A DNA stretch of 62,236 bases, filler included, from Hausera hauseri (GCA_046269625.1; 11 parts of 11 records of this genome joined end to end with filler, not necessarily neighbours in it); one strand, 5' to 3'; positions 2-32,150 are shown, numbered from the whole stretch's first letter. Program-made: numbers and translations. Notes: a model not told the origin generated them from the letters alone.

Positions 2-517
2 GAAGGATTCGTTTGAAATTTCGTGTATTAGTGGCGTAGACTTTACACTTGGTTTTTCGTTGTGATATTCTTTGAGTGTGTTATACATATTTAATATAAT
101 TAAGGCTTTATCTCTCGTTCTGGTTGGGTATTTGATGTTATTGAATTTTAGAAAGATTTGCTTTTGGGTCAGTGTTCTTTTTGGATTAATATGTTCGTTA
201 TAGAATAGGTCACGAATGCCCACTATTTGATCAATGTTGAAAAGGGCTATTTGGGAATTAGTACTAAACACAGTCATCTCCATTATCATTTTTCCTACCA
301 ATTGATGTCGAATTGTAGGCCAGATTTGGTATTGGTCGGCTTGGCCGATTAAATCTGATTCTCTTATTTCAGTTATTTGGGTGTTATAGTTATCTACGCG
401 TTCTCGTGGGGCAATGAGCTGATCGAAGATAATTTTCCCGTTCAAATCCATTATAGTAATTTCTATAAGGGTAGCTCTTGAACGACTGTCTTTCTGATTG
501 TTGAGGTGGAGGATAAT
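2..517 (-). pseudogene. DEDDh (REX4/ISG20-like) 3'-5' exonuclease-like domain in LTR element A polyprotein; runs off window edge
   Basis: Hand translation (absent from the ORF track): RATLIEITIMDLNGKIIFDQLIAPRERVDNYNTQITEIRESDLIG...IRHQLVGKMIM...IVGIRDL. This follows the REX4 pattern LARVSIVN..G.V.YD.YV.P.E.V.DY.T..SGI...DL...L.GKILVGH. The Exo I DxE is replaced by IILHLNNQ; in-frame TAG at 518-520. Confidence 0.75.
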
Positions 518-554
518 CTATTCGTTGTTGTGTAGTTGGTGCTGATTCATATAT

Positions 555-884
555 TGTTGTATGAACCAGGCTAGAAATCCATCCACCTCTACATTTTACC
601 CATCCTTCAACATTAGCCTTTAACGCTCTTGTGTCAATTTCTATATTTCTTTCTACTTCCTCTTGATTTGGGTTTACTCAGTTCATTATCATTATTTTAT
701 ACAAGAGGTAGGACATAGCTGTTACGATTTTATTTCGAGATATGCCAGTTCCCATCATTCTCGAAAGAATATCTGTTTCCTGTATTTCGTTTATCCTCTC
801 ATCTATAGGAATGTCAGCAAACTGTTCACTAATTTTTGAAATATCATTTCTAATAGCTTGCATCAATGAATTCGGTATTTGCAA
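555..884 (-). pseudogene. Bcl-2-like domain (BH3/BH1/BH2) in LTR element A
   Basis: ORF 678-884 gives BH3-like LMQAIRNDISKISEQF and BH1-like MMGTGISRNKIVTAMSY. Reading past the TGA gives BH2-like EGWVKCRGGW, then a frameshift to FLAWF (compare WIQDNGGWDAFVELY in BCL2). Confidence 0.65.
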
Positions 885-2005
885 ATTGTATTGAATTCAA
901 CGAATGCATTATGCATTCTTGCTAACAAGGATTGTAATAATGTTGTTAATGGTACATTGTCCACATCATATTCATCCTCTGTTGTCAGAAATCTCCGGAC
1001 AACTTTATCGTCTCTGGAGTTTCTACCTTTGAGTTGATACAATTTTGTCGTTCCTTTTGGTCTTCCGCTATTTCTTTTATCCGTTTGTATTTGTTCTGAT
1101 ATAAGCATATTTATTTCAGTTTCTACTGGTTGAGCTTGATATTGATGTTCAACTTCTTGTATTTCTTTTCGCCTGACATCAGTGATAATTTCATCGATTA
1201 TCTCATGTTCTGACTGTCTATAGGTAATACATACCGGATTATATCGATTTTCCCAAATACCTACTTCGTATAGAGTTTTGTAATCTATCAACGTTCGTCC
1301 ATAAATGCGTAACTCCAACTCTCCTTGAGACTGACTTATTTTGTTGACCCTCTTTTAATATAGCTATTGTATCTAGTGATCTTATTCTTAGAACATGGAA
1401 GTCCTGATTATACTGTTGGAGGGTAACCATTACTTCGGGGTTTTCTCCAACTGCTCTCACTCTATCAGCATAACGATAAATTATATATCGCACAACATTT
1501 TGATATGGACTTGTGCCAGCTGCATACATCAGCAACAAGTTTAGTAAATGAACAAATTGTTGATGTGTGATTGTTGGTAACAATAGCATAGAAAGGTCTT
1601 GTCTAAACTGAACGCCATCAATTAGTTCTTGAATAGCATAATTTAATATTTTCCGGACTATTTCTGTGCCATCCTGATCTAAATCTACAGATGGAGATTC
1701 ATAACTCGGAGATTTTTCTTTCGTTCTCTTTTTCCTTATTCTTTTTATTTTCTCCTTCGGTTCATTTTCTCCACTTGATTTACTCTTCGCTTCCACTCTC
1801 GGAAGGTACATTCAGTTCTGGGGTCCTCAATTCCTCTTCTTGTATTAAGGGTTTATCCTTCTTTTTGACCCTTTTCTTTTCAGTATCTGATTCAGATGCA
1901 GGAGTCTTTTTAGGCCTGCCAACAACAGGAGCAATGAGTAGACTTTCGTCATTCATTTTCTGTCTCCTTTCACAAATTTGTTGCTCCTTTAATTCAAGGT
2001 ATTGC
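863..2005 (-). pseudogene. Unknown polyprotein segment of element A: charged linker, helical domain, AT-hook-like GRP motifs
   Basis: Overlapping ORFs 863-1318 and 1239-1811 on the same strand as Gag; motifs VVGRPKKT (~1905-1930) and NSGRPKGT (~1050-1075). Confidence 0.45.
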
Positions 2006-3118
2006 TATTTTAGTTCAGCTATTTTGTCTTCCTCTTCTACTATATTAGTTTTACTTTCTTTTAGTTTAGATCTAATCTTCAGCTGTAACTTTTCAATAGT
2101 TTCTTCTGGTTCTGTATCTGTAAGTTCATGCTCGTTATCAGTGTCAGATATATTGCCGACTATATCAACATTCTTTTTCTTCTGACTTGATTGTCCTTGG
2201 TTGGGACAGGAACGAGCCATATGTCCATATTTTTGACATACAAAACAAGAATTGCCCATCTTGGTTAACCGGAGGCTTTTTCATTGCAGGTTTCTGAGGC
2301 TGGTTTTGCCAAGAAACCCTCTTCTGCGGCTGCTGTTCCGGTTGATTCGAATATTTTTGAAAAGGCTTCTGCTGAAAGTTTTTCTTCTGTTGAAAATTTT
2401 TCGGTTTCTTATCATCATTTTTAAGATGTTTCTTTGTATTCTCAAGTCTCTCACTATTAACTTCAATCTTTCTTGCCTTACTGACGGCTTCTTTGTATGT
2501 ATCCGGATCTGCAACGATAATATAATTCTGGATTTCTTTATTTACTCCGTAACAAAATTGAGCCAGGAGGGCATCTTCCCTTGTATCAACATCTGCATAA
2601 GCTATCTGAGCCTATTTCTGAAGGGCACATGCAAACTCTTGCACGGTTTCGCCTTTTCGTTGACGTCTTCTATTGAATTCTCCAATTCGACCCTTTCCTA
2701 ACGGGTCTACTAAGAGCCTTTCCTCAAGAGCGTCCTTAAGACTAGCTCAATCAGCTTTGTCCTCTTCATCCTTTATTTGTGTATAAGCACTAAGTGTCAT
2801 GCCTTTGAGATGCAAGGGAAGCCTCTTCATCCTGAACTCGTCTGTCCAGCCAAAACTTTCAGAATACATTTCGTATTGCATAATGAATTCTGCATAATCC
2901 TGATCCGGTTTAGCCTCATATTTGTCCATTGGAAGCACCATGGTTCCTGATAAGTTATTTCCTAGGCCTTTACCTAATCCTGAATTCGACATTTCTGGAT
3001 TCTCAATCAAATTTATTTCAGGATTTTCGTCTAAATCGGGACTACTCCTTGCCGAATCAGTACGTGAAGTTGTGTTATTAGCGTATATACGTTTACTTCG
3101 TAAAGGATACGACGCCAG
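2005..3118 (-). pseudogene. gag: Ty3/Gypsy Gag (capsid domain plus CCHC zinc knuckle), disrupted
   Basis: DYAEFIMQYEMYSESFGWTDEFRMKRLPLHLKG...RRQRKGETVQEF...LLAQFCYGV (retrotransposon Gag); CFVCQKYGHMARSC knuckle; internal stops. Confidence 0.85.
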
Positions 3119-3123: not shown

Positions 3124-3141
3124 CTCCTCACTCGGGCACCA
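3124..3141 (-). promoter_or_regulatory. Primer-binding site of element A (TGGTGCCCGAGTGAGG; possibly elongator tRNA-Met)
   Basis: TGG-initiated motif 1 nt inside the LTR's terminal CA; tRNA identity is tentative. Confidence 0.7.
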
Positions 3142-3142: not shown

Positions 3143-4129
3143 TGATAAGTTTAAGGTTCGAATAAAATATAAATTTCTTCAGGAAAGTTTGGGTTTCGTA
3201 ACATCAAACTTATACTTACTTAAGTTGAAACTAGCTCAAAGTTTTTCCTTCCTTTAAGCCTCAGAAGATAATTAGTCTTAATAGCCGCCTGTGGGTCGGC
3301 CCAATAAATAATTTTAACCTAATAAATTCGATCACCAGGAGGAACACTGGTGTCGTTCCCGGATTTTATAAAGTTTAGGACTCTACGGTTTTTTATGACC
3401 GTAAGAGAAAGAAAGAGGGTCCCTGTTTAGTTTAATCAATTCCTATTGCTATACGTATTGATTAATTATATTCAAATAAAAATCAAAAATATACAGTTAC
3501 AATAAGTTTTAATAATCAGAAAAAAATTACAAGGTTAAAAATGAAAGATACTCAATGAAAGTAAAATGTAAAATACAAACTTACATGAAGTACAACTATG
3601 CATCATATAAACACTTTTTTGTCAACAATAATGTCTGCAAGGGTTTATATATAATGTCCGAGACTCTCAAAGATACAGAAATTCCATAATAAATAATAAT
3701 TAAATTTAACACTACCAAATAAAATAATGTTAATTTGTGTCTAAAATTCAATGACACACATAATATCAAATGAAATTAATTCAATGTAACACACAATTGT
3801 TTTCACAATAATAAAACACACAATTGTTTTCACAATAATACACACAATTGTTTTCACAATAATATAATAGGATCAGGTGAAAATAACAAGGTCACCATTT
3901 AGATCATCATTTGATCATCATTTGTCAACATTAAGGTTAATCGGATTGCCCAACTAAACAATTGGGTTCCAACACTCCTGATAGATTATTATCCAAATAT
4001 TCTACATTAAAACTTAATAAAGTAAGAAGTAAGAATATGTAAAATTCCATATACATCACCTTAAGGTTAATCATTATATGTTGACACGAAGCAAAGGTCA
4101 AACACCCTTGTGTTATCCCTGTGTTAACA
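3143..4129 (-). repeat. 5' LTR of element A (~987 bp, TG...CA)
   Basis: Minus strand begins TGTTA at 4129 and ends TATCA at 3143 next to the PBS. At 4130 the sequence resumes colinear with the second element-B copy (ATGCAAC.AATGGA, cf. 16511). Contains 3 direct repeats of CACACAATTGTTTTCACAATAATA (~3790-3865). Confidence 0.8.
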
Positions 4130-7100
4130 ATGCAACGAATGGAATCTGTTGAATGCTTCTTTTTGAAGCGATTTAGAGAGGATGACCTTAGGATTATTGG
4201 GTTTGAAAGTGTCAAAGGCCACACCGTCGATGGTTTTTCACGATTTAAAAGATTTAAGGATGTCAGGAGGTGGCTGGTTTGTTTAAGTTTGAATTGAGGA
4301 AAATTGGTGTGAAATCAATCGAGCTGACAGATCGAGACAAAAAATCAGCTACCAAATTGTCTACCTCGCTTAGGTGCTTAATTTCAAAATTAAATGTTGA
4401 AAAATACGATATTTGCCTCTCTTGACGTGGCGAAGGCGATTTCATAGTAAGAATTTGAAGCAATGGCTTGTGGTCCGTTTGTATTGTAAAAGTTCGTGCA
4501 GTTAATAGATGTTTGAAGTGTTTTATGGCAAGGACCATTGCAAGCAACTCTCTGTCAGAGGTGAAATATTTTGCTCTTGTGCCGTGAATTTTCGAGAGAA
4601 GAATTCTAATGGCTTATGGAATCAATTTTTGTCTTAATGGATGACAGCACCTGCAGCTGTTGTGTATGCGTCCGTGGTTAAGAAGAGTTCTGCATGGGAG
4701 TCTGAATAGGCCAGGATTCCCACGGTTGTTAAATTGTCTTTGAGGTGATCAAAAGCGTTGACTAGCTTGGCAGTCCATTAAATAGGCTGTTTCTTCTTGC
4801 CAGAGCTTAGTGATGCAAATGGAGCGGTTAAAGTGGAACAATGTGCAACATACTTATGAATAAAGTGCAAGGTTCTGAGGAAAGAACGCATCTCTGTTAA
4901 TGTACGTGGTAGTTTTATGTTTGTGAGCTGTTGTGGTGCGCTCTAGCTGAAGTGAATATCCGGAGGAGCTAATAACATATCCTAGGAAGTTGACCTTATC
5001 TTGAGAAAAGGAGAATTTGGCGAAATTAATTTGCAAATTGTTTTGGTGCAAGTGCTGGAAGATTAAACGTAAGTTTCCAGAGTGCGGCTTTTAGGAAGAT
5101 GATGCAATTAGGATATCATCAATATAGAGATAGGCAAAGTCTAAGCCTGACAGGACTGTATCGATATGCCTTTGGAAGGTCTGGGTAGAGCTACGGAGTC
5201 CAAAAGGCATGAAAGGGTATTTGAAGAAGCCGAAAGGTGTAATGACAGCCGTTTTCGGTATGTCTGCTGGGGCCACCGGAATTTGGTGGTATGCTTTGTG
5301 TAAATCAATGCAGGAAAAGATGATCGAACCGTGAAGCCTGTGGAGGATGTCGTTGATTAATGGTAGAGGGTAGACATCCATTATAGTTATGATATTGGGT
5401 TGGCGGTAATCACCGCATGGGCGAAAGGTACCATCTTTTTTGGAACCACATGTAGTGGTGAATTCCAGGGGGATTTTTATCTTCTGATTATGTCTGATTT
5501 TTTCAGTTCAAGAAACTCAACCTCCACTGCCTGTCTGCTACGAAGCGATAGCGGACGGACCTTTCGCCGTATTGGTCTCTGATGTGCTGTTACTATGTGA
5601 TGAAAGGTGGATTGAGGTGGTACGAATGATTTGTTATTTTGCAACAGACGCGTGCAGGAAGACGAAATGTATTGCTGTAGATTAGAAGGCAGCGAAGAAA
5701 AGTTACCCGATGTCGTCAATGCATCGTGACTGGATGCAGTTGAGATATGAGTTGTAAACGAGGTGTTGTGACTGGGTGGTATTTGGTGCAGGATGTTAGT
5801 GTTGAAAATAGTGTTGGCAGCTGTGCTATCAGTGATAAGTGTCACACAGCTGGCAATATCGTATTTCGCACCGTAGTAAATATTTCTGTATAATGTATGA
5901 TTATAAAAATAATTTAAATCGGAAGTCGTTGGTATTGGGTTTCTTGCTTTGTTGTACTGTTATCCATGGATAGCCAAAACTCGACAGAAAATAAAATGAT
6001 TACAATATTAAATCCAACATCAAAAGAGAGTAAATGGAAATCCGCGTGTTGTATTTCGTCTGTACAATATTAGCAAATTCTGAAACGTATCATATAACAA
6101 CAAATCTGCCCGTATTGAAAAACATTACATAATAATGAGAAACTTAAATATCAAAATTAGGCACAGTCGAGTGACAAAGCAAAAAATAGACGTGAAATAT
6201 TAAACGTTCGAAATTGGCTGAATACACCAGATTTTGATTTTATACATTTAAACAAGAAAATGTTTTTTTTTTATTTTTGTCAAAATTATCGAGTGGGTGA
6301 ATATGGGCACCATAGTTGGCTTCAGCATTGACTTGTTGAAAGCAATCGCCTTGGTGGTGACCGAAATGCTGCTAATTTGATTAAAATTATTTCCGAACTT
6401 TAAGGAGAATCGTTTGCAATCTACAATTAAATTATAGTGGGACAGAAAGTCTAAACCCAATATAGGTGTGCGTATATTGGCTACTGTAAATTTCCATGTG
6501 AATGTGTTTGGAAATTGTGGAAGAGTGAAAGTTAATTTGGTAACTCCACAAATTTGTAAGGGTTCACCGGACGCAGGGAACAGTTGCTTTTTTGACGTGA
6601 AATTGTTTTAAATGTGTTGTGTTGGTGGCAGTAGAGAGATTGCTGCGTCGATGTTTATAAGAAAGTTAATGTTTTGTTTGTTGGAGTGACGACTGCTGCT
6701 TCCAACGTGAATACAGCAAAGGAAATGTGTCGGCTATCTTTTTGTAAGTTGTTGCCTTTGTTAGGGCTTGCCGTGTGTCCTCGTCGCGAAATCAGTTTTT
6801 TGTAGTTGGTGAATTTGGCCTATTGTGCTGTGTAAATTTAGTTGTGTTGATTTTATTTTGTGTGTTGTAATTACAGGAAGGTAGAAATTTTTGTGCATTT
6901 GTGCCAAACTTCGAGTGATAGATGCAAACGATGTTGCTTGTATTAAAATCGGGGGAGTAAAATTTACAACCGATTCAAAATTTCTGGGCATTTTTACCAA
7001 ATTTGCTATGATAATAGCAAATATATGACCGCGCGGAGGCAGCGTTAATTCGCTTAATTTTTTGTTTATGTTGTTAATTGTCTTCTGTAATATTTCTTTT

Positions 7101-7344
7101 TCCGTGCGTAATTGCGCAATTTGTTGTGCAGCATTGCATTTTATTGTTGTTGGTCTGTTGTTAATGCCGCAGAAATAGTTGGTCTTGTGTGTGAGTGCAG
7201 TTCTTCATATACTTTGTCTGCCAGTTCGGCCAACTTGTCCAGAGCCATGGAGTCTTCGACCACAATAAGCAAAGTTCTTATTTGTAGGGGCAAGGCATTT
7301 AAAAATAGCGACAAATAAGTTTTGGACTATGCTCAGAGGTGCCG
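4130..7344 (-). mobile_element. Ty3/Gypsy element B copy 1 (CsRn1-like): gag end, protease, RT, RNase H, start of integrase; degenerate
   Basis: RT motifs YPLPLINDI, IDLHKAYHQIPV, MPFGL, YIDDIL; RNase H ELLAMVLAIKHF, TDHKPL, NLVADFLSR; colinear with 16511-19390. Confidence 0.9.
5933..6314. mobile_element. 382-bp insertion with 5-bp target-site duplication (GTTGG)
   Basis: Absent from element B copy 2 at ~18310; GTTGG at 5928-5932 and 6315-6319. Confidence 0.7.
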
Positions 7345-7444: not shown

Positions 7445-7650
7445 GTGTAATGTAATGTAGTGTAGTGTAGTGTAGTGTAGTTTAATGTAATGTAGTGTAA
7501 TGTAATGTAGTGCAGTGTAGTGTAATGTGGTGTAGTGTAGTGTAATGTAATGTAGTGTAGTGTAATGTAGTGTAGTGTAATGTAATGTAGTGTAATGTAA
7601 TGTAGTGTAATGTAGTGTAGTGCAGTGCAGTGTAATGTAGTGTAATGTAG
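7445..7650. repeat. Pentanucleotide microsatellite (GTGTA/ATGTA)n
   Basis: Direct reading. Confidence 0.95.
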
Positions 7651-8010
7651 GTGGAGAAAGGGGGCGTTTGTAAAATGAATGGAGAAAGTTGCTGTACTCT
7701 CATTCCTAACAATACTGCCCCTGATGGCACTATAACAAAGGCTTTTGAAGGTTAGAAATCATCAAGAATTGAATTGGCCGACAACAGTGGCACAGAAAAC
7801 CCATTCAGTATGTGGATGGGAACATTTTGTACAATATAAAGAAGTGATGCGGAGCTTTATGAGCTCTACCTGCTGTGCTCTGGCCCTGTTGGTAGTGTGT
7901 GGCTGCAGCTGTGTTGCCTTGCATGCGGACAGTACTATATGAGTCAGGAGACTGGGGAGTCATTGATGGGGAGTTATGCTCAGTCAGAGTTAGAGGTCGA
8001 AATATATTAA

Positions 8011-8290
8011 ATATCCATCCATCCATTATCTTTAACCCTTATCATAATTAGGGTCGGGTTGGGGTACTGGAGCCTATCCCAGGCTTATGGTAACAACCTG
8101 GATGGTGTGCCAGTCCATCACAGGTACTGACAGGGCAATTCAGTGTCTCCAATTAACCTGGAAGCATGTCTTTAGACTTTGGGAGGAAACCGGGGTACCC
8201 GGATGAAACCCACGTGGACACAGGGAGAACATGCAAACTCCACACAGAAAGGACCCAGATCGCCCCACCCGGCGATCGAACCCAGGAGCT
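8011..8290 (-). mobile_element. Fish V-SINE (Mermaid-type tRNA-derived SINE)
   Basis: (ATCC)n tail, CTGGAGCCTATCCCAG, V-domain-like GGGAGGAAACCGG...GGGAGAACATGCAAACTCCACACAGAAAGG, B-box GGTTCGATC on the minus strand. Confidence 0.85.
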
Positions 8291-8569
8291 CATTATTTGT
8301 GTTTGTGTTTATTGTATATTTAATGACATGATGTATTCTGAATCTGTTTAGTAATCTCTATGTAGTTAGATCATTATTTATAACTGGATGGATCACATGT
8401 GGACGTCAGAGCTTCTGCTGCAGATACACGTGTGCTGTCAGAGTCTCACCTGAGCTCAGCTACTCTTAGCATTACTCTCTGAATCATCAATAAACCTCTA
8501 CAAAATGGATAACTCTGCTAATGTGTGAGACTTCTCCATTGTTTTTAAAACTCAACACTTATCCCAAAA

Positions 8570-9520
8570 CAAAACCCTATTAAAATCAAATCTTAAAACC
8601 TAAATATATTAGTGGAAACACACAATACCTGTGATTCACCTAACAACAACACCACGCCATGAGTCCATGTAATTACACACAATGAACACCTGAGGGCGAC
8701 GATTAACCCTGAACTACAGATCTCAACACAAAGTGCTGCGGGTAGAAGAAGTAAATGAACGAAGTGAATGAGAGGAGTCGATTCTTTTTTACCACAAGTG
8801 TGCCAGTGCAAACAAAATGAAGTTTTTTATCCTTTGAGAATGATTCATAATGTTCTCTTAACCTACCCCGGATTTACTCACTCTTAACCATAACCTCAAT
8901 AATGATTTAAACATACTAATAATTAATAATAAACTGTAATACATACAATGGACAAGTAATGCAATATATGATTCATCCAGATAACTCGCAACTATGATTC
9001 ATTCAAATAACTCGCAAATATGATTCGTTCCCAAATATGATTCATGAACCCTATTCAAATGTAAAACCTCTATATTATATCGGCGGTGAGACACTTGGCG
9101 GAACTTATAGGAGTACTGGGAGTACACACATTGGGAATACCAGAACTGGGGGTTAGACAGACTTGATAGGAGAATAGTGAGGCCCATTCTGCAGAGTTTT
9201 ATCATCAATAAACCTCTACTAAATGGATTTTAACTCGCAACACTTCTCCCAAAACTAAACCCTATTAAAACCACCCTAAATATATTATAGGAAACACACA
9301 ATAGCTGTAATTCAAATAACAACATCAACATGATATGAGTCCATGTAATTACAAATAATGAACACCAGATGGCGACATTTAATCCTGAAATACAGAAATT
9401 AATGAAAAAATGCATAATATAGTGATTTTGTAGGATAGATAAATAATCTAGCACATGTGTTGGACGTGAGGAGAATCTTTGAAATAATACATTTTTATTT
9501 CTTATCCTTTGAGATTGTTT
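8570..9520. repeat. Dispersed non-autonomous repeat, two copies (related copies at ~13905-14520 and ~14920-14980)
   Basis: Shared CATGTAATTACA.A.AATG.ACACC.GA.GGCGACATTT..CCTGAA.TACAGA. Confidence 0.6.
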
Positions 9521-9849
9521 AAATGTTTATTAGATGGAGCTAATTTCCTCCCACGGTCGAAAGGCATGCTACCAGGTTAATAATACAGTTACAATAAGTA
9601 CAAAGATTAGTTTAGTTCTTACACAGAGCTTCAAAAATCATGCCTGGCTTGGTCTAGTTAATGAAACTGGTTTATTAATGATATTTTCTGAACTGGTAGA
9701 TTAATGAAGGGAAAATGTGTACATTTAATAGTATGCCCTGTTTATTAATGATTATTCAGTGTGAATAATTCACTAGAGATACCACAGGGCATCCAGAGCC
9801 AGACATGCCATTCCATCATCTACAGATTTTATTATCACCATGCTAAAAC

Positions 9850-10400
9850 AAAAGGTACCTGCTTGTGATCATTGACATGTTCTCCAAGTGGGTGGAAGCT
9901 CAACCTACCACTCACCAGGATGCACTAGCAGTGACAAAATGCCTACTAAGGGAAAATACTCCTAGATTTGCACTCCCTAGGAAAGGTACATCTGATATGA
10001 TGTTCCAGCATTTGTGAGTACTCATCACTGATGTGATGTTCCTGCACTCACACAAGCACTGTGCATATCACCCTCAACGTGCAGGTGTGGTGGAGAGAAC
10101 AAATAATACAATCACACAGAAAATGTCTCATGAGACAGGACTAGCCTGGGTGGAGGCCCTCCCACTAGTGTGGATGAGTTTGAGGGAAAGAAAATCCTCC
10201 AGAACTAAACTCTCACCATCTGAGATGATATTTGGGAGACACCGGCCCTAGAGGACGATCACATGTGAAGGTACCGTGCTATGTTGTGCTCTGTGCTATC
10301 TGATGTACACAGGAGGGTGAAGGAGACTCTTCCTACACCAGCAGTGAGACACGGAGCGTTCCAAGTGCTTCTAACAGCTCACACAGCAGATATAATAAAT
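9850..10400 (+). mobile_element. Endogenous retrovirus (class I / epsilon-like) integrase remnant
   Basis: RYLLVIIDMFSKWVEAQPT...AVTKCLLRE, HCAYHPQRAGVVERTN, WVEALPLV, LSPSEMIFGR. Confidence 0.8.
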
Positions 10401-10444
10401 AATGCACGCAGGGCTGAACGCAGGCCCCTCAGTGCAATTATCTT

Positions 10445-11160
10445 CCTCTATGTACCCCCTGTACATCTCAGTCCCTCTCAGTACCCTTCAGAAGATCACT
10501 GTGTACTCCCTGTACCTCCTGGTGCTCCTCAGTACCAATCTGAACCCCTCTGTGTACGCCCTGTACCTCCTGGTGCCCCTCAGTACCATTCTGAACTCCT
10601 CTGTGTACCCCTTGTACCTTCTGGTGCCTCTCATTTCGCTTTGTGAACCTCTCTGTGTGCCACCTGTACCTCTCAGTACCTCTCAGTACCTCTCAGCACC
10701 CTTCTGAACCACTCTGTGAACCCCCTGTACCTCCTGGTGCCTCATATTTCCCTTTGTGAACCTCTCTGTGAACCCCCTGCACATCCTGGTGACTATCAGT
10801 ACCCTTGTGAACCTCTCTGTGTTAACCCTCATAACACCTGGTGACTCTCAGTACCCTTCTGTGAACCCCCTGTACAAATAAGTACCCTTCTGAAGCTCTC
10901 TGTGTTAACCCCTGTACCTCCTGGTGACTCTCATTAAGCTTGGTAACCTCTCTGTGTATGCCCTGTACCTCCTGGTGCCTCTAAGTAAACTTCTGAACCT
11001 CTCTGTGTACCCCCTGTACCTCCTGGTGACTCTCAGTACCTTTCTGAACCCCTCTGTGTACCCCCTGTACCTCCTGGTGCCTCACATTACCCTTGTTAAC
11101 CTCTATGTGTAAACCCTGTAGCACCTGGTGTCTCTCAGAACCCTTCTGAACCTCCCTGTG
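10445..11160. repeat. ~50-bp minisatellite (CTCTGTGTACCCCCTGTACCTCCTGGTGCCTCTCAGTACCCTTCTGAAC); further arrays at 13710-13900 and 14520-14900
   Basis: Direct reading of tandem units. Confidence 0.9.
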
Positions 11161-11164
11161 TTAA

Positions 11165-11840
11165 TATGCACGAATCATACTAGGGAGTTTTGCGCATTTT
11201 TTATTTGCGATGAATGTGCATGAATAATTATCGCGAATTTTGCGCGTTTTGCCCGTTATTTGCTATTAATGTGCATTAATCATAATCGCGAGTTTGTCGC
11301 ATTTTGCGCGTTATTTGCGATTAATGTGCATGAATAATTATTGCGAGTTTTGCGCGTTATTTGTGATGAATGTGCATGAATCATAATCGCGAGTTTGTCG
11401 CATTTTTGCGCGTTATTTGCGATTAATGTGCATGAATAATTATCGCGAGTTTGTCGCATTTTTGCGCGTTATTTGCGATTAATGTGCATGAATCATAATC
11501 GCGAGTTTGTCGCATTTTTGCGCGTTATTTGCGATTAATGTGCATGAATAATTATCGNNNNNNNNNNNNNNNNNNNNNNNNNNNNNNNNNNNNNNNNNNN
11601 NNNNNNNNNNNNNNNNNNNNNNNNNNNNNNNNNNNNNNNNNNNNNNNNNNNNNNNNNCGTTATTTGCGATTAATGTGCATGAATCATAATCGCGAGTTTG
11701 TCGCATTTTTGCGCGTTATTTGCGATTAATGTGCGTGAATCATAATCGCGAGTTTTGCGCGTTATTTGCGGTTAATGTGCATGAATAATTATCGCGAGTT
11801 TTGCGCATTTTTGCGCGTTATTTGCGATTAATGTGCATGT
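11165..11840. repeat. 56-bp CpG-rich satellite, with an assembly gap at 11558-11657
   Basis: Unit TGCGATTAATGTGCATGAAT(AATT/CATA)ATCGCGAGTTTGTCGCATTTTTGCGCGTTATT. Confidence 0.9.
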
Positions 11841-12249
11841 AGTTTAATATAATGTAATGTAGAGCAGTTTTGGTTACCATGGTAATGATTGTAACAGGAA
11901 TATGAGCTCCTGAAACGTTAAGTGTTGTTGTTGATGTGTTGGACATGTACAACAGTAATAAATCATCTAAACCTTAGATAAACACATCGAGCACATGTGG
12001 AGCCATTTTTGGGATAATTGGACCATAAACAAAGAAGAACATCAATCAAGTTTTCAGCTCTCGACTCAGACCTGCTCAATCAAATCAAAACAACAGAACC
12101 TGACCAACAGAAGAAAGAAAGAAAAGAAGAAAATCAGAGGAAAACAACATTCAGGAACCCAGGCTGAGTAAAAGGAAGGGGTAAGCTTGTTATTGAGCAT
12201 TTCTTTTATTTACATCTGGAAATACTGTTAGCTTTAGCTTTAGCTACAA

Positions 12250-13264
12250 TCTACTGCCATCAACTGCCACCAACTGTCATCCTAACTGCCATCAACAGCC
12301 ATCAACTGCCATCAACTGCCATTAACTGCCACTCTTATCTGTTTACATTGAAACATGGACTCAGCACTGAGCCTCAGGTCTCTGAGCATCAGCTACCCTG
12401 AAGAGGCCAACAGTGATAGTAAGAAGAAAAAATACAAGGCAGAAGTACTGAGAAAGCACCCAGAGAGCCTGAGAGCAGATTCTACACTGCTCCATGGAAA
12501 GGAACCACCAAAACCAATATCAACACCAGCACCAGTACCAGCACCAACACTAGCAGCCCTGCAGGACCCAGATCACCCGCCACAATGGAGATGGAGCTAA
12601 TAGAGATGAAGAGGAAGAGTCCTGACCACACCCTAAAGAATGGGAGAGAACTAGTGCACCTCTGTCGATCTTCAGCTCTGTACACACTTAATGGTAGGAT
12701 CCGAGGGGACTCTTTTGGGAGGTTTACATGGTGTTCAGCTCTTGGAGCTAGTGTAGTAGATTATGTAAGTACTGACATGAACCCCTCCACTATTAGTGCA
12801 TTCACCCTCAGACCACAACTCCCACTTTCATCTGATCACTGCCAAGTCAATGTGTATCTAAAAAGAATCAGTCAGAATCAAATCACTAAATATGAGCCCT
12901 GCAAAACCTTCAAGTTAAATCCAACATCCAGATGGAACCATGACAGTGAAGCAAAATTTAAATCTGCTGTTCTTTCCCATAAAATTACCAACCATATTAA
13001 TACATTTCTACTAGAACCATTTGAACTAAATCAATCAGGTGTTAATAAGGCTGTTTCAAAAATATATGAAATATTTTATAAATCTGCTACAATTGCCGGT
13101 CTCAAATTTACAAACACCAAACCGAACCAAAAGAAGAAGAGAAGTCTTCACGCAGGGGCGTGGGGTGAGACAGGGCTGCAGTCTGTCTCCCACCCACTTT
13201 AATATCTACATCAAAGACCTTAAGATTCTACCCCCCCACACACACACTCAACACACATAAACAC

Positions 13265-13303
<39 letters not shown>

Positions 13304-13710
13304 GCACGCACGCTCACACGTACAGACAGTCAATATCCCCTCATTTTAAGCATCCAAAAAAGAGCTATAAAATTCTATAAACATATTAAAACCAGCGACC
13401 CCCAATCACTCCTTTACAAAGCTCTGTCAAATCAAGAACATTACATTCACAAAAGCCCCCTCAGCCAATTAATCCTAAACACCACCCACCTTACACCCAC
13501 CGACATCACACACTCCACACGCCCCCATCACACACTCATCAGAACCATCACACACTCCACACACCCCCATCACACACTCATCAGAACACACAGAGACAGG
13601 GAGAGAGAGACAGAGTCCAGACTCTGCCCTCACTGCGACTGGTCATTGGTGGAGACAGAGCTGCACTTTCTCACTGAATGTCCCAAATACAAACTTATCA
13701 GAAACAAATA
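12250..13710 (+). mobile_element. Heavily deleted non-LTR retrotransposon (RTE-X/L2-like)
   Basis: Endonuclease end NGRELVHLC...LNGRIRGDSFGRFT...SVVDY...SDHC; RT fragment GRGVRQGCSLSPT.FNIYI; C-terminal LCPHC...VETELHFLTECPKY. Confidence 0.8.
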
Positions 13711-14980
13711 TGTACCTCTGTACCCCACTGTACCTGCTGGTGCCTCTCAGTACCCTTCTGAACCTCTCTGTGTACCTCTCTGAACCCTTGTGAACCTGTC
13801 TGTATACCCCATGTACCTCCTGGTGTCTATCAGTACCCTTCGGAACCTCTATGTGTACCCCCTGTACCTCTCTGTACCTCTCAGTTCCCTTGTGGACCTC
13901 TCGTGTAGAATCTAATCTCCCTCATGTGTCCATAGTTTGTAATTGCATGGAATTTATGGCATTTTGGTTTTCTGAGGTGAATTCATTTTTAAACTTATTT
14001 AATTTATTGAGGCTATGCTTAAAAAAAGTTCATTAGGACAATGTAAGGGGGGGTCACAATAATTTCACTGATTAATCCCAACACTAAGCCATAACCCCAA
14101 TAATAAATACTATTAAAAAATAATTCACCTCATAAAAACAACAAAACATAAAGTTCATGTAATTGCACACAATGGAGATATTTCTCCTTAAAACTCCAGA
14201 GCTCAATAAAGTGCTGCAGGTAGAAGAAGTGAACAAGCACATGTTAGTGATTTGTTATTTAATTGTTTTCCCCACCAGTGAGCCAGTAAGGAAACAATTT
14301 GTATTTGAATTTATTTATAACATTCCCCTAATGTAGCCCCAATTTACTTATTCTTAACCATTACCTGAATAATTATAAAAAATAAATAACACGACATAAA
14401 GTCAACGTAATTACAAATAATGGACACCAGATGGCGACATTTCTCCAGGAACTCCACATTAAATGTCGCCCTCAAGTGTCCATTTTGTGTAATTACATGA
14501 ACTTTATGACATATTGGTTCTGTGTACCACCTGTGCCTCTCTGTGCTTCTCAGTACCTTTGTAAAACTCTCTGTGTACCCCCTGTGCCTCCTGGTGACTC
14601 TCAGTACCCTTCTGAACTTCTATGTGTACCTCCTATACCTCTCTGTACCCTTCTGAACCTCTCTGTGTACCCGCAGTACCTCCTGGTGCCCCTCAGTACC
14701 ATTCTGAACCCCTCTGTGTACCCCCTGTACCTCCTGGTGTCTCTCAGTACCGCTGTGAACCTCTCTGTGTACCACCTGCACCTCCAGGTGCCTTTTAGTA
14801 CCCTCATGAACTATCTATGTGTTCCCCCTGTACCTCTCAGTACCCTTCTGAACCTCTCTGTACACCCCCTGTACCTCTCTGTACCTCTCAGTACTTTTGT
14901 GATAATAAAAAAAACTGTAATTCACCCCAAAACACCTGAAGGCGACATTTAACCCTAAATTACAGAGGTTAATAAATGCT

Positions 14981-18700: not shown

Positions 18701-20212
18701 CCAACGTGAAAACAGCAAAGAAAATGTGGCGGCTGTCTTTTTGCAGGTTGTTGCCTTTGCTAGGACTTGCCGTGTGTCCTATCGGCGAAATTAGTTTTTT
18801 GTAGTTGGTGAGTTTTTCCTACTGTGTTGTATGAATTTAGTAGTGTTGGTCTTGTTGTGTGTGTTGTAGGTACAGCCAGGTAGGCATTTTTGTGCTTTTG
18901 TTCTAAATTTTGAGTGGTAGATGCCAACAATGTTGCTTGTATTAAAATTGGGGGAGTAAAATTTTCAACCGATGCAGCATTTCTGAGCATTGTTACCAAA
19001 TTTGCTATGATAACAGCAAATAGACGTCCGCGCGGGCGAAGGCGACCGTCTTTGATGTTGATTAAATACGTTAGGGGAAACAGCCCTAGAAAAACCTCGT
19101 CGAGATAGAGTTAATTCGTTTAATTTTTCATTTATGTTGTTAATTGTATTCTGTAACTTTTCATTTTCCGTGCGTAAGTGCGCAATTTGTTGCTGCAGCA
19201 TTGCATTTTTTGTTGTTGATCTGTTGTTAATGCTGCATAGATAGTTGGTGCTGCATGTGAGTGCAGTACTTCGTATGCTTTGTCTGCCAGTTCGGCTAGC
19301 TTGTCAAGAGCCGTGGAGTCTTCTATCACAGTTATCAAAGCTCTTATTTAAAGGGGCAATGCATTTAAGAAGTAGCGTCGAATAAGTTTGGGATTGTACT
19401 AAAATGTTACGCCAAGGGTGTTGAGGTGAGACAAGGATGTGCGTAGGAATTCAGAAGGCTTCTAAAGGGCCATGGCGTTGTCGTTAAAGAATCTTTAAAT
19501 GATGGAGTCGATTGAAGGCTCAGTAAGCTTGAGAACGGCATTATGAAGTTAAGCATATGGATCAGCGTGCTGAAGGCTATCAATGGTATTGGTAATCTTA
19601 GTTTTGATGGAAGCTGGTAAGTGGAAAAAGAGGCTGTTGGCTTTGGCTAAAAAGTCGACGACGTTTTGTGATTGGAGCCAGAATTAGTGCAGTTTTACAC
19701 AAGTTTGAGTAGAGTTTTGACTGTCGAGGAAATATTCTGTGCAGGGTAAATGAGTGAGGAGTGTGTGTTGTGTAGAGATGTTGGAAGGGCTGTGCTTGGG
19801 TAAATGAATGACGTGGATCTGTGGTTTGGTAAGTTTGTACGTGGTATCAATTGTGGGTGATGAATCCATGTTACCACGGATACGGAAGTGGATGTGAATA
19901 CAAATGTGGGTTGACGATGATTGTAGAGTTCCAGCGAGGGGTATTAGAGATCCGTTGTATGTGAGGTAGAAATCAGACGAGTGGAGTAAGGCAGAGATGA
20001 AGTTGTGAATGTCTGCATTGTGTAAATGCAGTGCTGTGTATGTGTATATATATTTGTTATTTAGAAAAAGAAAGACGGAGAAGGGAGAGGTGATATGTCC
20101 GGGGGCGTGCTGCGGGACAACAGCGAACGGCGCCGTCTGACCCACCGGCGCAGGATGGGCGGCAGGGACTTCAGCCTCGTTGCGGCGGGTCCAAAATTTC
20201 GGGGTGACCGAA
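15797..20212 (-). mobile_element. Ty3/Gypsy element B copy 2 (CsRn1-like): Ubl-gag, protease, RT, RNase H, integrase; degenerate, no LTR visible
   Basis: CHCC Gag motif CCYHSKFGNNAQKCC; protease FLIDTG; RT/RNase H; integrase HSIHLLH...CVACQ, VHIDL, DRFSRWPEA, SDQGPQFES, PQSNGVLERFH. Degenerate tRNA-Trp-type PBS CGGTCACCCCGA at ~20199-20210. Confidence 0.9.
19870..20085 (-). other. Ubiquitin-like domain directly N-terminal to Gag of element B
   Basis: FSVFLFLNNK...DFYLTYNGSLI...TLQSSSTHICIHIHFRIRGN|MDSS resembles ubiquitin QRLIFAGKQL...TL...STLHLVLRLRGG|M. Confidence 0.55.
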
Positions 20213-27366: not shown

Positions 27367-27592
27367 AAATCCAATATTATTGATTTTTGCACACTTGCAC
27401 ATGTGCTGCACACTTGCACTGTGCACAAATCGATGCACCCTGATGTGCTCTATCGATTAGCGGCACCGTTGCTAGGCACTTTATGCATCGATAGTGTACA
27501 GTGTGCAATATCGATCGGCACATGTGCAAAATCGATTTACCGATTACCCGACGCCCCCTGGGGTGGGACAGAAAGCACATTTCCTCCCTACT
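27367..27592. mobile_element. Polinton/Maverick TIR (TGCAC family) ending in CTACT
   Basis: Close match to 56125-56400; ends CCCTACT at 27592. Confidence 0.8.
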
Positions 27593-28023
27593 GACATAGT
27601 CTTCATTTGACAGAAAGTATCCATTCTCCAGTTCATTAAGAAATTGTACACAATCAATTTTGCTACTGCATATTTCTTTTGTGAGCCATTTAATTTCAGC
27701 TTCTAAGTCTATTTTTGAAGTATATGGATAATTTAGGAAAAACATAATTAAATACATAACATTTGTCACAGAAATTGTTGAAACAATGCTATTAGCACAC
27801 CTTTATTTATATCCAAATAAAAGGGGTGGGAATAGTTAAACCCAATCCACCCCAGAAAATGCTTTGTCTACTGCTTTCCTATTGGTCAGTTTTCCTTACC
27901 CCGATGACGTGTTCTCATCTCATTGGTCCACTTTCCCTCCTCCGATGACGTGTTTTGCGCTGATTGCTAACTTTCCTTCCCTGGCGGGGGGTGGTTGGGG
28001 TAATGTCCTCCTTTCCACCTACT
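27593..28023 (-). mobile_element. End of a second, different Maverick-like element (AGTAGGTGGAAAGG...) with start of a first ORF
   Basis: CCACCTACT ends at 28023; GC-rich end with paired TGACGT and ATTGG boxes; resembles the AGTAGGTAGAAG terminus at 33176; cuts off the glycoprotein. Confidence 0.6.
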
Positions 28024-29625
28024 TATATTCAAATTCTGTGATGACCTATTTCTCGGATATTTTGAAATAATACGTGTTTTCTTACTGCTTCCAGATCTGT
28101 CAAGGAATGTAATCCACTGGTGGGAAGTACTCTATTAACTTTAAACTTTATACCTTTATCCACTGGTAATAATCCAATCGTCTGTGGTATATTCATCATA
28201 GTTGGTTGGCGTGTTTTAGTCCATCTTCCATCGTTGAGTTTGAAGGCCGGATAGAAGTCTTTATAACATAGTACGAAGCTGATTTCCGTAGGTAACAATA
28301 ACTTTCAGGTAATAGGGTCCACATATCCTACTTTAATTATGTTTTTATCGTTGTATTGGACCATTAATTCGTTCGTGCAATTTGCTTTTGGTGATGTTAC
28401 TGGCATTACCTCTATCGGTGGGCATTGGTACACATGAAGTGTCTCACCTTGTGCTCTACTAAATATTCCAGGGCGATATCCCATAATTAAGGCAATATGT
28501 TCGGAAAATTCTCTGGCTAATATCAAGTCGTGCTGGTTCAATTTGTGAATGATTTTACAGTCTCGCAGTACCATCGTCTTACACAACTCAACTAAATCCA
28601 TTTTTGCGGTGTAATAGATATAATCTATCTTGTTATTCGTATATAGTTACCACTTTATATCTTCGGTTGGTAACTTTCCTGTATTTGCAATAGTTATGTT
28701 TGTTACAAAAGATCTTTATTAGATGTAGAATAAACGGCATTCGATCCACAAGTTGATACTGCTCCTTTACGAGTTAGTACGATTCTGGCCTTGTCACTGG
28801 ATGACATTAGAACTTTCAGGGAAGTGGTTTGTTTTAAGGCTTGTGAATAGGTAAACTTATATTATGGTTATGCACAGGTTCTTGATATTCGTCATCATAA
28901 TATAAATCACCTTGTACTTCGTACATAGACACCTGTTTAAGGAAGACTAATGGACATATCATGATCGTTTTTCCCAGACTAATGTAGATTCTCCCAGGAT
29001 ACACACTCCGTCAGAATATGTGCAGGATGGTGCGGTTAACATTTTTCCTGTGATTGCATCGAAATTTACTTTACATTCCTTTATAGTGACGGTATAATCT
29101 TCTATTTGTACTATAGCGGATTCTTTTTGTCCATTTGTCATCATACTTTTTCCTTTACAAGCTCCACCGTATCCGGGCCATACTTTTCCGGCTGTAACTA
29201 CACGTGAATAAACTCGTTTTCCTATACCTGCCTGTACTGGCTGTTGAAGGCCTACATGAATTGAATCAGTAGCTTTTCTACAATTTTCAGCTGTTATTGT
29301 CACGAGTTTAGGTAGTCCTTGTGGAATAATTACTGAATTCCACGAATTATAGCCGCAGTTATAAGCGAATACAACTTAATTAACTTGACATTCCTTTACT
29401 TGAACGTGTTGGTAACTGATTCTTTGATACAGATTATAGTTATAAGGACCTTCTTTCTTTACTAATATTGGATTAGCGCTTTGACATTTACCTATATCCA
29501 CCAGTGAAAGTCTAGCTGTTATTTCCGATCTGGAACAATCATAGGCTTCTGACGCTTTCATGGTTTTTATACTACTCACAGCTATCAAGTATAGTAGCAG
29601 ATAAATAATTTCTACTACCCAACCT
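28024..29625 (-). pseudogene. env: Chuvirus-type (gB-related) envelope glycoprotein, disrupted and 3'-truncated
   Basis: Hydrophobic signal IIYLLLYLIAV, then AYDCS...LSLVDIGKC...LYQR...VKEC...CG...GACKG...CTYSDGVC...TLVW; later YTNNKIDY...RDC...GYRPG...GETLHVYQC..IEV...CTNELMV...DPIT...C...PAFKLNDGRW. Confidence 0.8.
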
Positions 29626-29659
29626 GAGACATTGGTATCCTTGGGGTACATTAATCTAG

Positions 29660-30043
29660 TGGGGTTAAATTTCTTCAGGATTTTATCCCAACCACCTTGT
29701 TTAGTTACCCAATCTTTTGTTAGTTTATCCATGTAATTGGCTAAGTCCCTTACTATATGGTATAACTTGGCATAGACCTCTGTTTGGTTTTTGAAGCTAA
29801 CCACTATGCATCCTTGTGCCATTAGCAATCGGTTTTGATCACATTTCTTTAATAATCGTGTTAAGGCTTTATTTGAATTCCTTTCAGTTTATACTTCTGA
29901 AGCAATTTTGTAATTTGCGATGAGAAATTTCTCGCGGTTTCTATTATGGATTGCAATGAAATTGTTGTAATTGTTGGTATCTTTTTGAGTTGATTTGGAT
30001 TAGCTTTCTTGACTAATTGTTCTAGGAGTTCATGGGTTGTCAA
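29660..30043 (-). pseudogene. Bcl-2-like domain directly upstream of, and in frame with, the glycoprotein
   Basis: BH2 LANYMDKLTKDWVTKQGGWDKILKKF; weak BH1 LLKKCDQNRLLMAQG; weak BH3 LQSIIETARNFSSQ. Confidence 0.65.
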
Positions 30044-30049
30044 TATTAC

Positions 30050-31200
30050 CTTTAATACACCTGTTTCGTTTTAATCCTATGTTCTCGTAGCAGGATTCTT
30101 TGTTTGTTCATTTTCATCATTACTAATAGTAAATCATTGGAAATTATCGTATAATACATGTTCTAACATTTCCCGTTGTTCCTTACGTTTTCGCGACAAA
30201 GGTCTTTTTTACTTCGCCTTTCTGGCGTTTCTTCTTCGGGGTTTTCTTCATCATCACTTATTGGAATAAAATCACATTTTCGTGGTCTTCTTCACTACTT
30301 CTTAGTACCAAATTCCATGGTAATCTGATGAATCTTTCTGGTAAGGAGTCCATAGTCCACAATGTAGTCATTGTCAGCGGCTAATCTACCATAAACATCA
30401 GTTTTCGATATTATATTAGTTTCTAGATTTAATTCATTTAATACTTTCCTTCGGTGGTCTGTAAATTTAGTGAACATTCCTGATGTTACTTCGATTACTT
30501 GTTCCCGCTCATTGGTTTTAATTTTTATACTTATAATATATGGTTGTTTTTGTCTGTGTTTTCGTCTTAAGTCTCTTCCAAGAGTTTTAAGTAACTTTCT
30601 TGCTGCTAAAAAGAGAATACATTGTCTTTTGTTAGAGGTAGGAGTAATGGTGCGCATTCTATTCGGCTAGTTAGTGGTAGTAACTCATTGTCGTAAAGCA
30701 TTCCATACCTCGTTAGGTGCTGTACTGGTCATTTGTAGTTTAGCTTTAACTATTTCAATTATTGATTCTGAGGGTTCGCCGTGTACTATGGAACCTGGGG
30801 AAATATTTATTTCTGGGATATTTCTTGGGTTTTCAATTGGTAATAACGTAGTTTCGGGATATTGTACTACGTCTGCTGTAGGAATGAGTTTATCGTCTTC
30901 TAAGACTTAAAACACTTCATCTTCGTCTATGTCTTTGGTCTTGTTTGTTACCTGTGGTTTCCTTTTAGATGTACCTCGTTGTATTGAATCCCTAATGGTG
31001 TCAAGTAATGTCGGTCTTTGAGGTGGAACATTAGATTGGGACAGTGGTGCGAGTAATCTGTCGTATAAGGTTCTATCCATTTTCCAGTTGGTCTTGTTCT
31101 GACGAGCTCATGTGAATAGTCGTCAGTGTCCATATCGGGGTGTCTTTGAGCGACTGGTTCGATTGCTGGGATTGCTGTTGCTTCGGTAGTTTTTTAAGTT
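30050..31200 (-). pseudogene. Unknown polyprotein segments between exonuclease-like and Bcl-2-like domains
   Basis: Consecutive same-strand ORFs 30948-31133 and 30295-30657; no family recognised. Confidence 0.35.
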
Positions 31201-31665
31201 TCCGTATTGCTGGTAAGGCTATTCGTAGTGTTTTCTGGCTTTCTATTACCCATGGTACATTGTATTCAACTTGTATAAGTTTTCCAGTATTTGTCGAGAT
31301 ATCTTTGCGCCATAATTTCTGAGTTATGACCATGATAAACATTTGTACGTTTTGTCGGTTTGTTCCATATCGTAAAGGGTGGTTAGATTTGCTGGATTTA
31401 TTTTCAGTGTATTCAGTAAATCTGGCAATTGGCGTCCGATGATTACTTTTCCTGGTAGATACTTATTCTTGAATTTGCTTACCGATTCTTGTCGTTGAGA
31501 GTTGGACCATCTACTGTATTCGGTATATTTTCTTGTGTCTGGTATGTTCCGGTACACATGAATATTAAGAATTGTCTTTCCTTCTACGTTTTTGGCAGTT
31601 ACATGAGTAAATCCTTTTTGATCTTCTTTGGTTTTGCATCTATCTGTGAATATTATTTCTCTTTC
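31200..31665 (-). pseudogene. Divergent DEDDh exonuclease-like domain
   Basis: IIFTDRCK...FTHVTAKNVEGKTILNIHV...YLPGKVIIGRQLPDLLNTLKI...LYDM follows VALDCE...LARVS.VN..G.VLLD..V...L.GKILVGH.L..DL..L...IRDT. Confidence 0.55.
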
Positions 31666-32150
31666 CTATGTTATAGGTTCATCCGCAGATAATATGGGTG
31701 TTTCCTTAAGCAATTGTATTAAGTATAACGAGCAGTTATCTAGTGGTTAGAACTTACAATCTCCTTCGTAGGGATAATTGGGNNNNNNNNNNNNNNNNNN
31801 NNNNNNNNNNNNNNNNNNNNNNNNNNTTAATTAATTAANNNNNNNNNNNNNNNNNNNNNNNNNNNNNNNNNNNNNNNNNNNNTAAACTTTTTATAGCAAT
31901 CGCCAGTGTTCCTTTTCTGCTTGTGGCAAAGTGATTTAATTGTATAATTGGCAAATGTTGCTAATGGGATGACTAATAAATACTGGGCACTTTTTTGCTC
32001 TGATCTATGATTATGTCTGCCAAAATTGTTGTGAACGTCTACTGTAGTATCTAATGAGCTAAAAAAGAAAGGATGTCAATCCTGCGCTAAGTTCTTGTCA
32101 ATGCCTTTAAATAATAAGGCTTATGAATCAAACTGAGCTATTACTTTGAA

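Follow-up and report, generated by a model that had tools for sequence, protein, structure and literature searches.

Which kind of mobile element brings together a Bcl-2-like domain and a DEDDh-type exonuclease-like (Exo) domain is the question raised by two contigs in a 62,236-nucleotide stretch of DNA from Hausera hauseri (GCA_046269625.1), here called the window. The window consists of 11 contigs joined by N-spacers, and the two in question are contig 1 (1–7344) and contig 5 (27367–31782). The initial annotation had placed both domain types on both contigs, with a long terminal repeat (LTR) and Gag upstream on contig 1 and an envelope protein (Env) downstream on contig 5, and all of these components were recovered (Table 1). 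It left a choice between one giant element of the order LTR-Gag-Bcl2-Exo-...-Bcl2-Env, with pol elsewhere or supplied in trans, and two sister families with shuffled modules. The second option is now the probable one: contigs 1 and 5 would each hold a broken copy from one of two sister families of LTR elements with an envelope, likely Ty3/gypsy retrotransposons of the Burro type, that share an in-frame cassette of a likely ubiquitin-like (Ubl) domain, a likely Bcl-2-like domain, a hydrophobic helix and a class III Env, with pol predicted downstream. The host of both elements is likely a flatworm.

All relevant coding sequence on the two contigs lies on the minus strand and is interrupted by stops and frame changes. 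Uninterrupted natural open reading frames (ORFs) from ENA were searched for, using a single-frame X read-through of contig 1 and a Bcl2-Env read-through of contig 5 as queries. Each query had a single match: P0038 (1130 aa, no interruption) for contig 1, with E 8e-168 among 6498 candidates, and P0008 (1963 aa, no interruption) for contig 5, with E 3e-140 among 2733. The respective families are called family 1 and family 5 below. Contig 1 aligns to P0038 in five segments, from 2989 to 486, and identity is 69–88% in eight of the nine compared segments (linkers 69–76%) and 41% in the last 27 residues. P0038 runs in one ORF through Gag, a CCHC knuckle, a small helical domain, Ubl, Bcl2, a transmembrane (TM) helix and Env. 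Its Gag matches the dArc2 capsid (E 0.0068), and past the Bcl-2-like domain a hydrophobic helix (residues 784–802) is followed by a PF24664 Env (E 6e-19). Because P0038 runs on into the TM helix and Env where contig 1 departs, Env does belong to family 1. The family is compact, with only ~800 aa from Gag to Env in P0038.

Contig 5 covers residues 615–1861 of P0008 in six segments, with 12 stops and with linkers of 18–51% identity. Its Env ends before the membrane anchor, and the last ~100 aa of P0008 have no counterpart in it. The order in P0008 is RS-rich, Exo, Exo, helical, Ubl, Bcl2, TM and Env, with an RS/N-rich N-terminus. Neither Gag nor pol was recognised in P0008, leaving at least 1963 aa in family 5 without either. 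Family 5 has many copies, since 26,428 contigs map onto contig 5 at ≥80% in run X1, which may be the source sample. A basic stretch after the Ubl domain of P0008 (~1105–1115) ends in a di-glycine and is a possible processing signal; it is found in neither P0038 nor contig 5.

Compared directly, the domains of the two contigs are only distantly alike, as had been noted. The best Exo match has an E of 3.6, the Bcl-2-like domains share only a 10-residue BH2-like match (E 0.036), the best blastn match between the contigs is 15 nt (E 0.095), and P0008 finds contig 1 at E 2.9 at best. The relationship becomes apparent between the uninterrupted ORFs. Over Bcl2-TM-Env, 155 of 521 residues (30%) are identical between P0038 and P0008 (E 2e-51), and there is no significant likeness between the two upstream of Ubl. 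In shuffle tests (2000 shuffles each, domain borders placed by eye) the z score was 76.8 for Env and 6.4 for Bcl2, with none of the shuffles reaching the real score in either case, and 3.7 for Ubl, with 11 of the 2000 reaching it. Where the families overlap they are thus 30% identical, against 61–88% in structured domains within a family. The Ubl domain precedes Bcl2 on both contigs, which the first reading had missed. The cassette is collinear in two uninterrupted ORFs; Gag is in frame with it in family 1, two degenerate DEDDh-like domains lie upstream of it in family 5, and both window copies are decayed. Judged by these alignments, contigs 1 and 5 represent sister families with a common Ubl-Bcl2-TM-Env cassette and different upstream cargo, not one family, which bears out the idea of shuffled modules. 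Within family 1, the Bcl-2-like domain is conserved like the capsid (both 86% between contig 1 and P0038), and within family 5 it is more conserved (75%) than Env (61–67%) or the linkers (18–51%) between contig 5 and P0008. Both Bcl2 and Ubl are more conserved than the linkers. That they equal or exceed the structural genes in conservation, measured as protein identity in one pair per family and not as dN/dS, makes it likely that active elements were under selection to keep the two domains.

On contig 1, a TG...CA segment opens with TG at 4129, exactly where identity to the gypsy element of contig 3 ends (4130), and closes with CA at 3143, one base ahead of a TGG at 3141 that resembles a primer-binding site (PBS). 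We take this segment for the 5' LTR of another element that landed in the pol of the first; no second LTR to pair with it was found in the window. The contig 1 pol was considered as the Bcl2 element's own and rejected because the LTR sits inside it; it belongs to the gypsy element that was the insertion target. At its other end, contig 1 leaves P0038 at ~486, where P0038 goes on to TM and Env. The order Bcl2 then Exo, which the initial annotation took for a native arrangement differing from that of contig 5, reflects a rearrangement at this point, which removed TM and Env and likely cut off the Exo I motif. The claim that this Exo is catalytically altered holds for Exo II and III; Exo I is missing because the piece begins downstream of the motif, which was likely lost through the junction rather than substituted. 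The piece has 26 matches at E≤1e-3 among 1.84 billion representatives, 13 of which match Pfam RNase_T, and a profile of eight of its relatives matches ISG20L2 (E 8e-14). Its A fraction (0.403) is close to that of Gag-Bcl2 (0.396) and above that of the insertion-target gypsy (0.325), which weakly favours an origin within the element. We rather favour the view that the piece was the element's own 3' accessory gene, moved beside Bcl2 by internal deletion; otherwise it would be a separate insertion.

The four parts of the cassette differ in how clearly they can be named. The Env call is firm, with PF24664 at E 1.9e-63 in P0008. All 32 rows listed by Foldseek for the P0038 AlphaFold model are class III fusogens, one of them at E≤1e-3, and the confidence of this model is higher at 855–1000. 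The hydrophobic helix has a Kyte-Doolittle value of 1.8–2.0 in P0007, P0008 and P0038. The Bcl-2-like domain matches Pfam Bcl-2 at E 0.005–0.055 across the sequences tested, and the Ubl domain of P0038 matches Pfam ubiquitin at E 0.031. Profile A3 had only two matches in the PDB, Bcl-2-like 4 (E 0.54) and the UHRF1 Ubl (E 1.1), both at the expected places; another profile search of the PDB gave Bcl-2 A1 (E 0.38) beside one unrelated catalase. For a model of the cassette, Foldseek listed Bcl-2-family chains in 28 of 45 rows. Single-sequence searches of the PDB gave no match for the contig 5 Exo, only a designed repeat protein for the contig 1 Bcl2 and one match at E 1.1 for P0008; searches of the ESM Atlas gave no usable match, and the helical domain had generic helical matches only in a fold search. 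A BH2-like W..GGW motif and the tail anchor after it are kept in both families at 30% identity. The Bcl-2-like and Ubl assignments are weak singly (E 0.005–1) and consistent across methods, and we regard them as likely. The helix before the contig 5 Ubl was considered as a BH3 motif, which has a conserved aspartate position, and was dropped since this position is not kept.

Upstream of the cassette in family 5, the DEDDh-like domains were compared with a hidden Markov model (HMM) of 24 natural exonuclease relatives, run against 13 sequences. The first P0008 copy matched at E 8.6e-5 and the contig 5 copy at E 0.0025; the second P0008 copy could be aligned with a score below zero, and the two P0008 copies resemble each other with a shuffle z of 3.8. 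Neither has the Exo I pair or the Exo II aspartate. As these catalytic acidic residues are missing from an otherwise intact ORF, unlike in the relatives, of which 18 of 24 keep the Exo I D-x-E and six do not (alignment A1), the P0008 copies are likely pseudo-nucleases. The residues of an active DEDDh enzyme (Exo I D-x-E, Exo II D, Exo III H...D) are complete neither in the P0008 copies nor in contig 1. It is a tentative suggestion that such copies act as RNA-binding decoys or chaperones instead of nucleases, in which case they would bind RNA rather than cut it. The domain upstream of Exo was considered by eye as a cupin, without support, and no shorter relatives of P0008 residues 370–1345 were found among 8000 scored candidates. 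DEDDh cargo in Burro-like elements was not described in any paper that a literature search turned up; it may be described in Grohme 2018 or Lee 2026 (Dev Cell), which lay outside that search. L001–L008 and P0009–P0036 form a widespread family of stand-alone ORFs of 420–680 aa, with a ~180-aa N-terminal domain and an ISG20L2-like DEDDh domain, and occur as several paralogues per assembly. A locus scan of the exonuclease subfamily gave nine loci, eight of them short contigs with a stand-alone ORF and one a bacterial-looking DnaQ. None of the nine matches P0008 or P0038 at E≤0.1, and five neighbouring ORFs had no pol or env match. Four of four scans of viral contigs confirmed no locus, and metagenome contigs gave none for P0038.

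The closest described design is that of Burro/GYPSM1, giant gypsy LTR retrotransposons of dugesiid planarians with an internal region of up to 25 kb and an ORF1 near 5000 aa (PMC6431247). Burro ORF1 encodes Gag with two or three CCHC knuckles, MATH, Ubi2/SUMO-like, BCL2, a mononegavirus-like Env, protease, dUTPase, reverse transcriptase (RT), RNase H and integrase (Arkhipova and Yushenova 2019, PMC6431247). P0038 likewise has Gag at the N-terminus of a polyprotein that includes Env, a likeness confined to family 1. In both families a likely Ubl domain, which has the position and pattern of the SUMO-like domain of Burro, a likely BCL2-like domain and Env follow in frame in the Burro order, with Env directly after the BCL2-like domain in contig 5, P0008 and P0038 (Bcl-2 below cut-off in each single test), and the strongly matching P0008 Env is related to the class III fusion glycoproteins of mononegaviruses. 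Unlike Burro, contig 1 and P0038 have one CCHC knuckle. Pfam (E≤1) gave no MATH, BIR, RING or ankyrin in P0038 or P0008, both of them partial ORFs seen without accessory ORFs. Family 1, known here from fragments, measures ~800 aa from Gag to Env with an LTR of ~1 kb. Degenerate DEDDh cargo is absent from the Burro description in the available part of PMC6431247. The elements resemble Burro in working and are not filed as Burro proper, given one knuckle and no MATH or BIR seen. The Ubl-BCL2-Env order in frame behind Gag has already been published for Burro, which limits the surprise of finding it here.

Elements of the order GAG-ENV-POL with a gB-type Env occur in flatworms, nematodes and bryozoans, with six in S. 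mediterranea (Chary and Hayashi 2026, PMC13524379). Family 1 agrees with an errantivirus in their sense in its Ty3/gypsy-type gag, gB-type env, LTR and PBS. As in those elements, the Env of P0038 is of class III and follows gag. Inspection by eye showed it to be collinear with all six S. mediterranea rows of that source and, by eye count, about one third identical to one of them, similar to the 32–38% between most of the S. mediterranea families listed there. A search of the supplement with six Env motifs gave 17 occurrences, 16 of these in the S. mediterranea rows, and none for one motif. In the main text of PMC13524379, Bcl, Burro, exonuclease and ubiquitin have no occurrence and cargo domains are not discussed. 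Supply of pol in trans, as first proposed, is not needed, since Burro and the flatworm errantiviruses have their pol downstream of env (PMC6431247, PMC13524379), a position that here lies beyond the fragment ends. DEDD-superfamily exonucleases as retroelement cargo are known from the Juno and Vesta LTR retrotransposons and the Terminons of bdelloid rotifers (PMC5408684). There the enzyme, as far as the source goes, is an RNase D-like DEDDy with intact residues in a separate ORF3, whereas here it is an ISG20/REXO4-like DEDDh that is degenerate and, in family 5, tandem and inside the polyprotein. PMC8532177 holds, in its available portion, only expression data of relevance here.

Several observations weigh against two Burro-like sister families. 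No pol of their own, no 3' LTR and no full-length copy was seen for either family; none of the four sequences (contigs 1 and 5, P0038 and P0008) reaches past Env. Each family rests on one natural ORF. No Gag was found for family 5, the Gag region of P0038 and the N-terminus of P0008 giving a z of -1.5 (1958 of 2000 shuffles reach the score), and no relationship could be detected between the helical domains (z 0.5; 582 of 2000). Every Bcl-2 and Ubl match falls short of a curated cut-off, the best for Pfam Bcl-2 being E 0.0046. Both AlphaFold models, of P0038 and of the cassette, are poor (mean pLDDT 36); the Ubl domain failed to fold as a beta-grasp in the cassette model, and the Bcl-2 rows for that model are all at E>0.5 and mutually dependent. 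A VIA fold search listed Bcl-2 in seven of 50 rows at a Z of only 5.2–5.9, from a poor model. The BH1-like stretch is divergent, without NWGR, the canonical BH1 motif of Bcl-2 proteins, and is compatible with apoptosis control in either direction. The Env motifs were picked after viewing the S. mediterranea rows, and their match is not blind.

These points have to be set against what other readings would require. That both contigs belong to one family with the architecture LTR-Gag-Bcl2-Exo-...-Bcl2-Env would account for their common strand bias and A-richness and for the presence of Bcl2-like and Exo-like domains on both, but we find it hardly tenable. The similar AT-rich composition put forward in its support holds for coding-strand A (0.396 and 0.395 on contigs 1 and 5, against 0.31–0.33 in ordinary gypsy elements), but GC (0.367 and 0.370) falls inside the range of all 11 contigs (0.342–0.417). 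Moreover P0038 passes from Gag through a single Bcl2 into Env without Exo (family HMM E 1), P0008 spans 1190 aa upstream of its single Bcl2 with neither a second one nor a match to contig 1, and identity between the families is far below that within them. Contig 1 could also be a genuine env-less, non-autonomous subfamily (LTR-Gag-Ubl-Bcl2-Exo) that spreads in trans, and not a one-off deletion. Its Exo shares strand and A-richness with Gag-Bcl2, and loss of the TM helix would yield a soluble Bcl2-Exo product; the piece begins mid-domain, however, without Exo I and the ~180-aa N-terminal domain of its full-length relatives, and is out of frame with Bcl2 (a weak point, as the copy has four other frame changes), making such a subfamily improbable. 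Still less probable is an origin unrelated to Burro, from BEL/Pao retrotransposons or from endogenised chuvirus-like pieces that share the fusogen class. Glycoproteins of the PF24664 type do occur in BEL/Pao and Chuviridae (PMC13524379, in part), and the missing pol fits as well, but Gag resembles a Ty3/Arc capsid with one knuckle, LTR and PBS are gypsy-like, and the Ubl-BCL2-Env order matches Burro.

A single hydrophobic helix separates Gag from the Env anchor, and the Env profile begins inside it. In the proposed Burro-like elements the LTR would drive one transcript for a Gag-cargo-Env polyprotein, with pol predicted downstream, and the single helix would act as an internal signal sequence. 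Cleavage behind the helix would send the fusogen to the endoplasmic reticulum and the secretory pathway. The Bcl-2-like domain would stay behind facing the cytosol, held by a tail anchor as cellular Bcl-2 proteins are, and would there damp the death of host stem or germ cells during particle assembly. BHRF1, KsBcl-2 and CNP058, viral Bcl-2 homologues that appeared among the fold-search rows, likewise combine a Bcl-2-like fold with a C-terminal hydrophobic helix on a mobile element; they are stand-alone genes of DNA viruses, whereas here the domain lies inside a retroelement polyprotein and its tail helix would double as the Env leader. We are mildly inclined towards a pro-survival role by this mechanism. 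Because the canonical BH1 motif is missing, its main rival is a real cassette in which the Bcl-2-like fold no longer controls apoptosis and instead links Gag to Env, as a matrix-like tether at the membrane or as an inhibitor of signalling. The position between Gag and the Env signal helix would be topologically useful for a tether, and Bcl-2-fold proteins with non-apoptotic roles exist in poxviruses. In addition, the protection of planarian stem cells reported for Burro1, its demonstrated survival function, is ascribed to its RING-BIR region (second-hand, in PMC13465017). Against a tether, the BH2-like motif and tail anchor are kept in both families, as expected of a working Bcl-2 protein, and we consider it unlikely, if a serious competitor.

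With two sister families of this kind, the Burro design would reach further than the elements described from Schmidtea and Dugesia. Retention of the cassette at 30% identity while other cargo was swapped points to the cassette as the conserved core of the lineage, and a Bcl-2-like domain under constraint would give retroelements, beside BIR, another testable way to control host cell death. The degenerate DEDDh domains are a type of cargo that the texts consulted do not give for Burro. More speculatively, and on balance doubtful, an ancient enveloped lineage of flatworms may use one helix both as the tail anchor of a functional Bcl-2 survival factor and as the signal peptide of a class III fusogen, its families swapping ISG20-like pseudo-nucleases that decoy the RNA surveillance of the host. 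If so, each envelope molecule made would deliver one membrane-bound apoptosis inhibitor, and the core that Burro-like elements conserve for manipulating their host would be the Bcl2-Env cassette rather than BIR. No description of a shared anchor and signal helix in such elements was found in the literature search; Grohme 2018 and Lee 2026 may contain one.

Table 1. Features of contigs 1 and 5, with their positions in the window
Contig	Feature	Position	Strand	Basis
1	Ordinary gypsy element (RT, RNase H), insertion target	4130..7326	-	85–87% identity to contig 3; Pfam RVT_1, RT_RNaseH
1	5' LTR, ~987 bp, TG...CA, TATA-like box at 3651	3143..4129	-	Sequence
1	PBS-like motif (TGG...)	3124..3141	-	Sequence; ~150 nt upstream of gag ATG
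1	Gag capsid, Ty3/gypsy-like, two stops	2429..2992	-	86% to P0038; Pfam Ty3_capsid E 0.008
1	Single CCHC zinc knuckle	2202..2247	-	Pfam zf-CCHC E 2.8e-5; 88% to P0038
1	Small helical domain, no named family	1457..1685	-	75% to P0038
1	Ubl domain (likely), one frame change	1225..1454	-	73% to P0038
1	Bcl-2-like domain, one stop and one frame change	569..962	-	86% to P0038; Pfam Bcl-2 E 0.015; fold-search trend
1	Rearrangement junction	480..490	-	P0038 match stops just ahead of TM helix and Env; Exo then in another frame
1	DEDDh (ISG20/REXO4-like) exonuclease-like piece, 5'-truncated, reaches contig end	2..485	-	Exo II/III motifs altered
5	Likely DEDDh-like pseudo-nuclease and end of its upstream domain	31227..31782	-	49% to P0008, second of its two copies; HMM E 0.0025
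5	Small helical domain, no named family	30558..30783	-	52% to P0008
5	Ubl domain (likely)	30315..30555	-	75% to P0008; no own Pfam match
5	Bcl-2-like domain, one frame change	29663..30052	-	75% to P0008; Pfam Bcl-2 E 0.01
5	Hydrophobic helix between Bcl2 and Env	29576..29630	-	74% to P0008; PF24664 match begins inside helix
5	Class III (gB/GP64-like) Env ectodomain, stops and frame changes	28052..29555	-	PF24664 E 1.2e-20; 61–67% to P0008
5	Non-coding tail: purine tract, two 41-nt repeats, TATA/AATAAA-like box	27600..28050	-	3' LTR piece or unrelated insertion

The non-coding tail of contig 5 has no real similarity to the contig 1 LTR (best match 20 nt, E 0.18). It contains CCAAT/ACGTCA repeats that vary among run X1 contigs and is promoter-like, and it is followed by a short open frame without a Pfam match. 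A short, partly palindromic repeat, MITE-like (miniature inverted-repeat transposable element) by appearance, is found on contigs 3, 5, 8 and 10 (15531–15796, 27367–27593, 45474–45908 and 55576–56373) and has by far the highest summed run X1 depth on contig 5.

The remaining contigs hold other mobile elements and a few host genes. The insertion target on contig 1 and 15743–19393 are two decayed copies, 85–87% identical, of an ordinary env-less gypsy family with RT, RNase H and integrase. Two further copies, at 41774–45134 (+) and 52813–54602 (-), are 79–80% identical and contain a protein-primed polB-like region (weak DNA_pol_B_2), likely of a Polinton/Maverick. ORFs at 33859–34712 (-) without a Pfam match resemble what we take to be the adenain-type protease and capsid protein of a Polinton-like element. 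A near-complete long interspersed nuclear element (LINE) at 47970–51675 (-) has endonuclease-like, RT-like and RNase H parts (RNase_H E 1.8e-17). Contig 2 (7445–15425) is unlike the rest, with 51-nt and 56-nt tandem arrays, CA microsatellites and LINE-like pieces, and could derive from a different animal if the sample was mixed. Host genes are represented by a divergent G-protein beta subunit (E 3.4e-66) and a Nup93/Nic96 piece, at 58427–59038 (-) and 60620–61021 (+), which can be used to place the host taxon.

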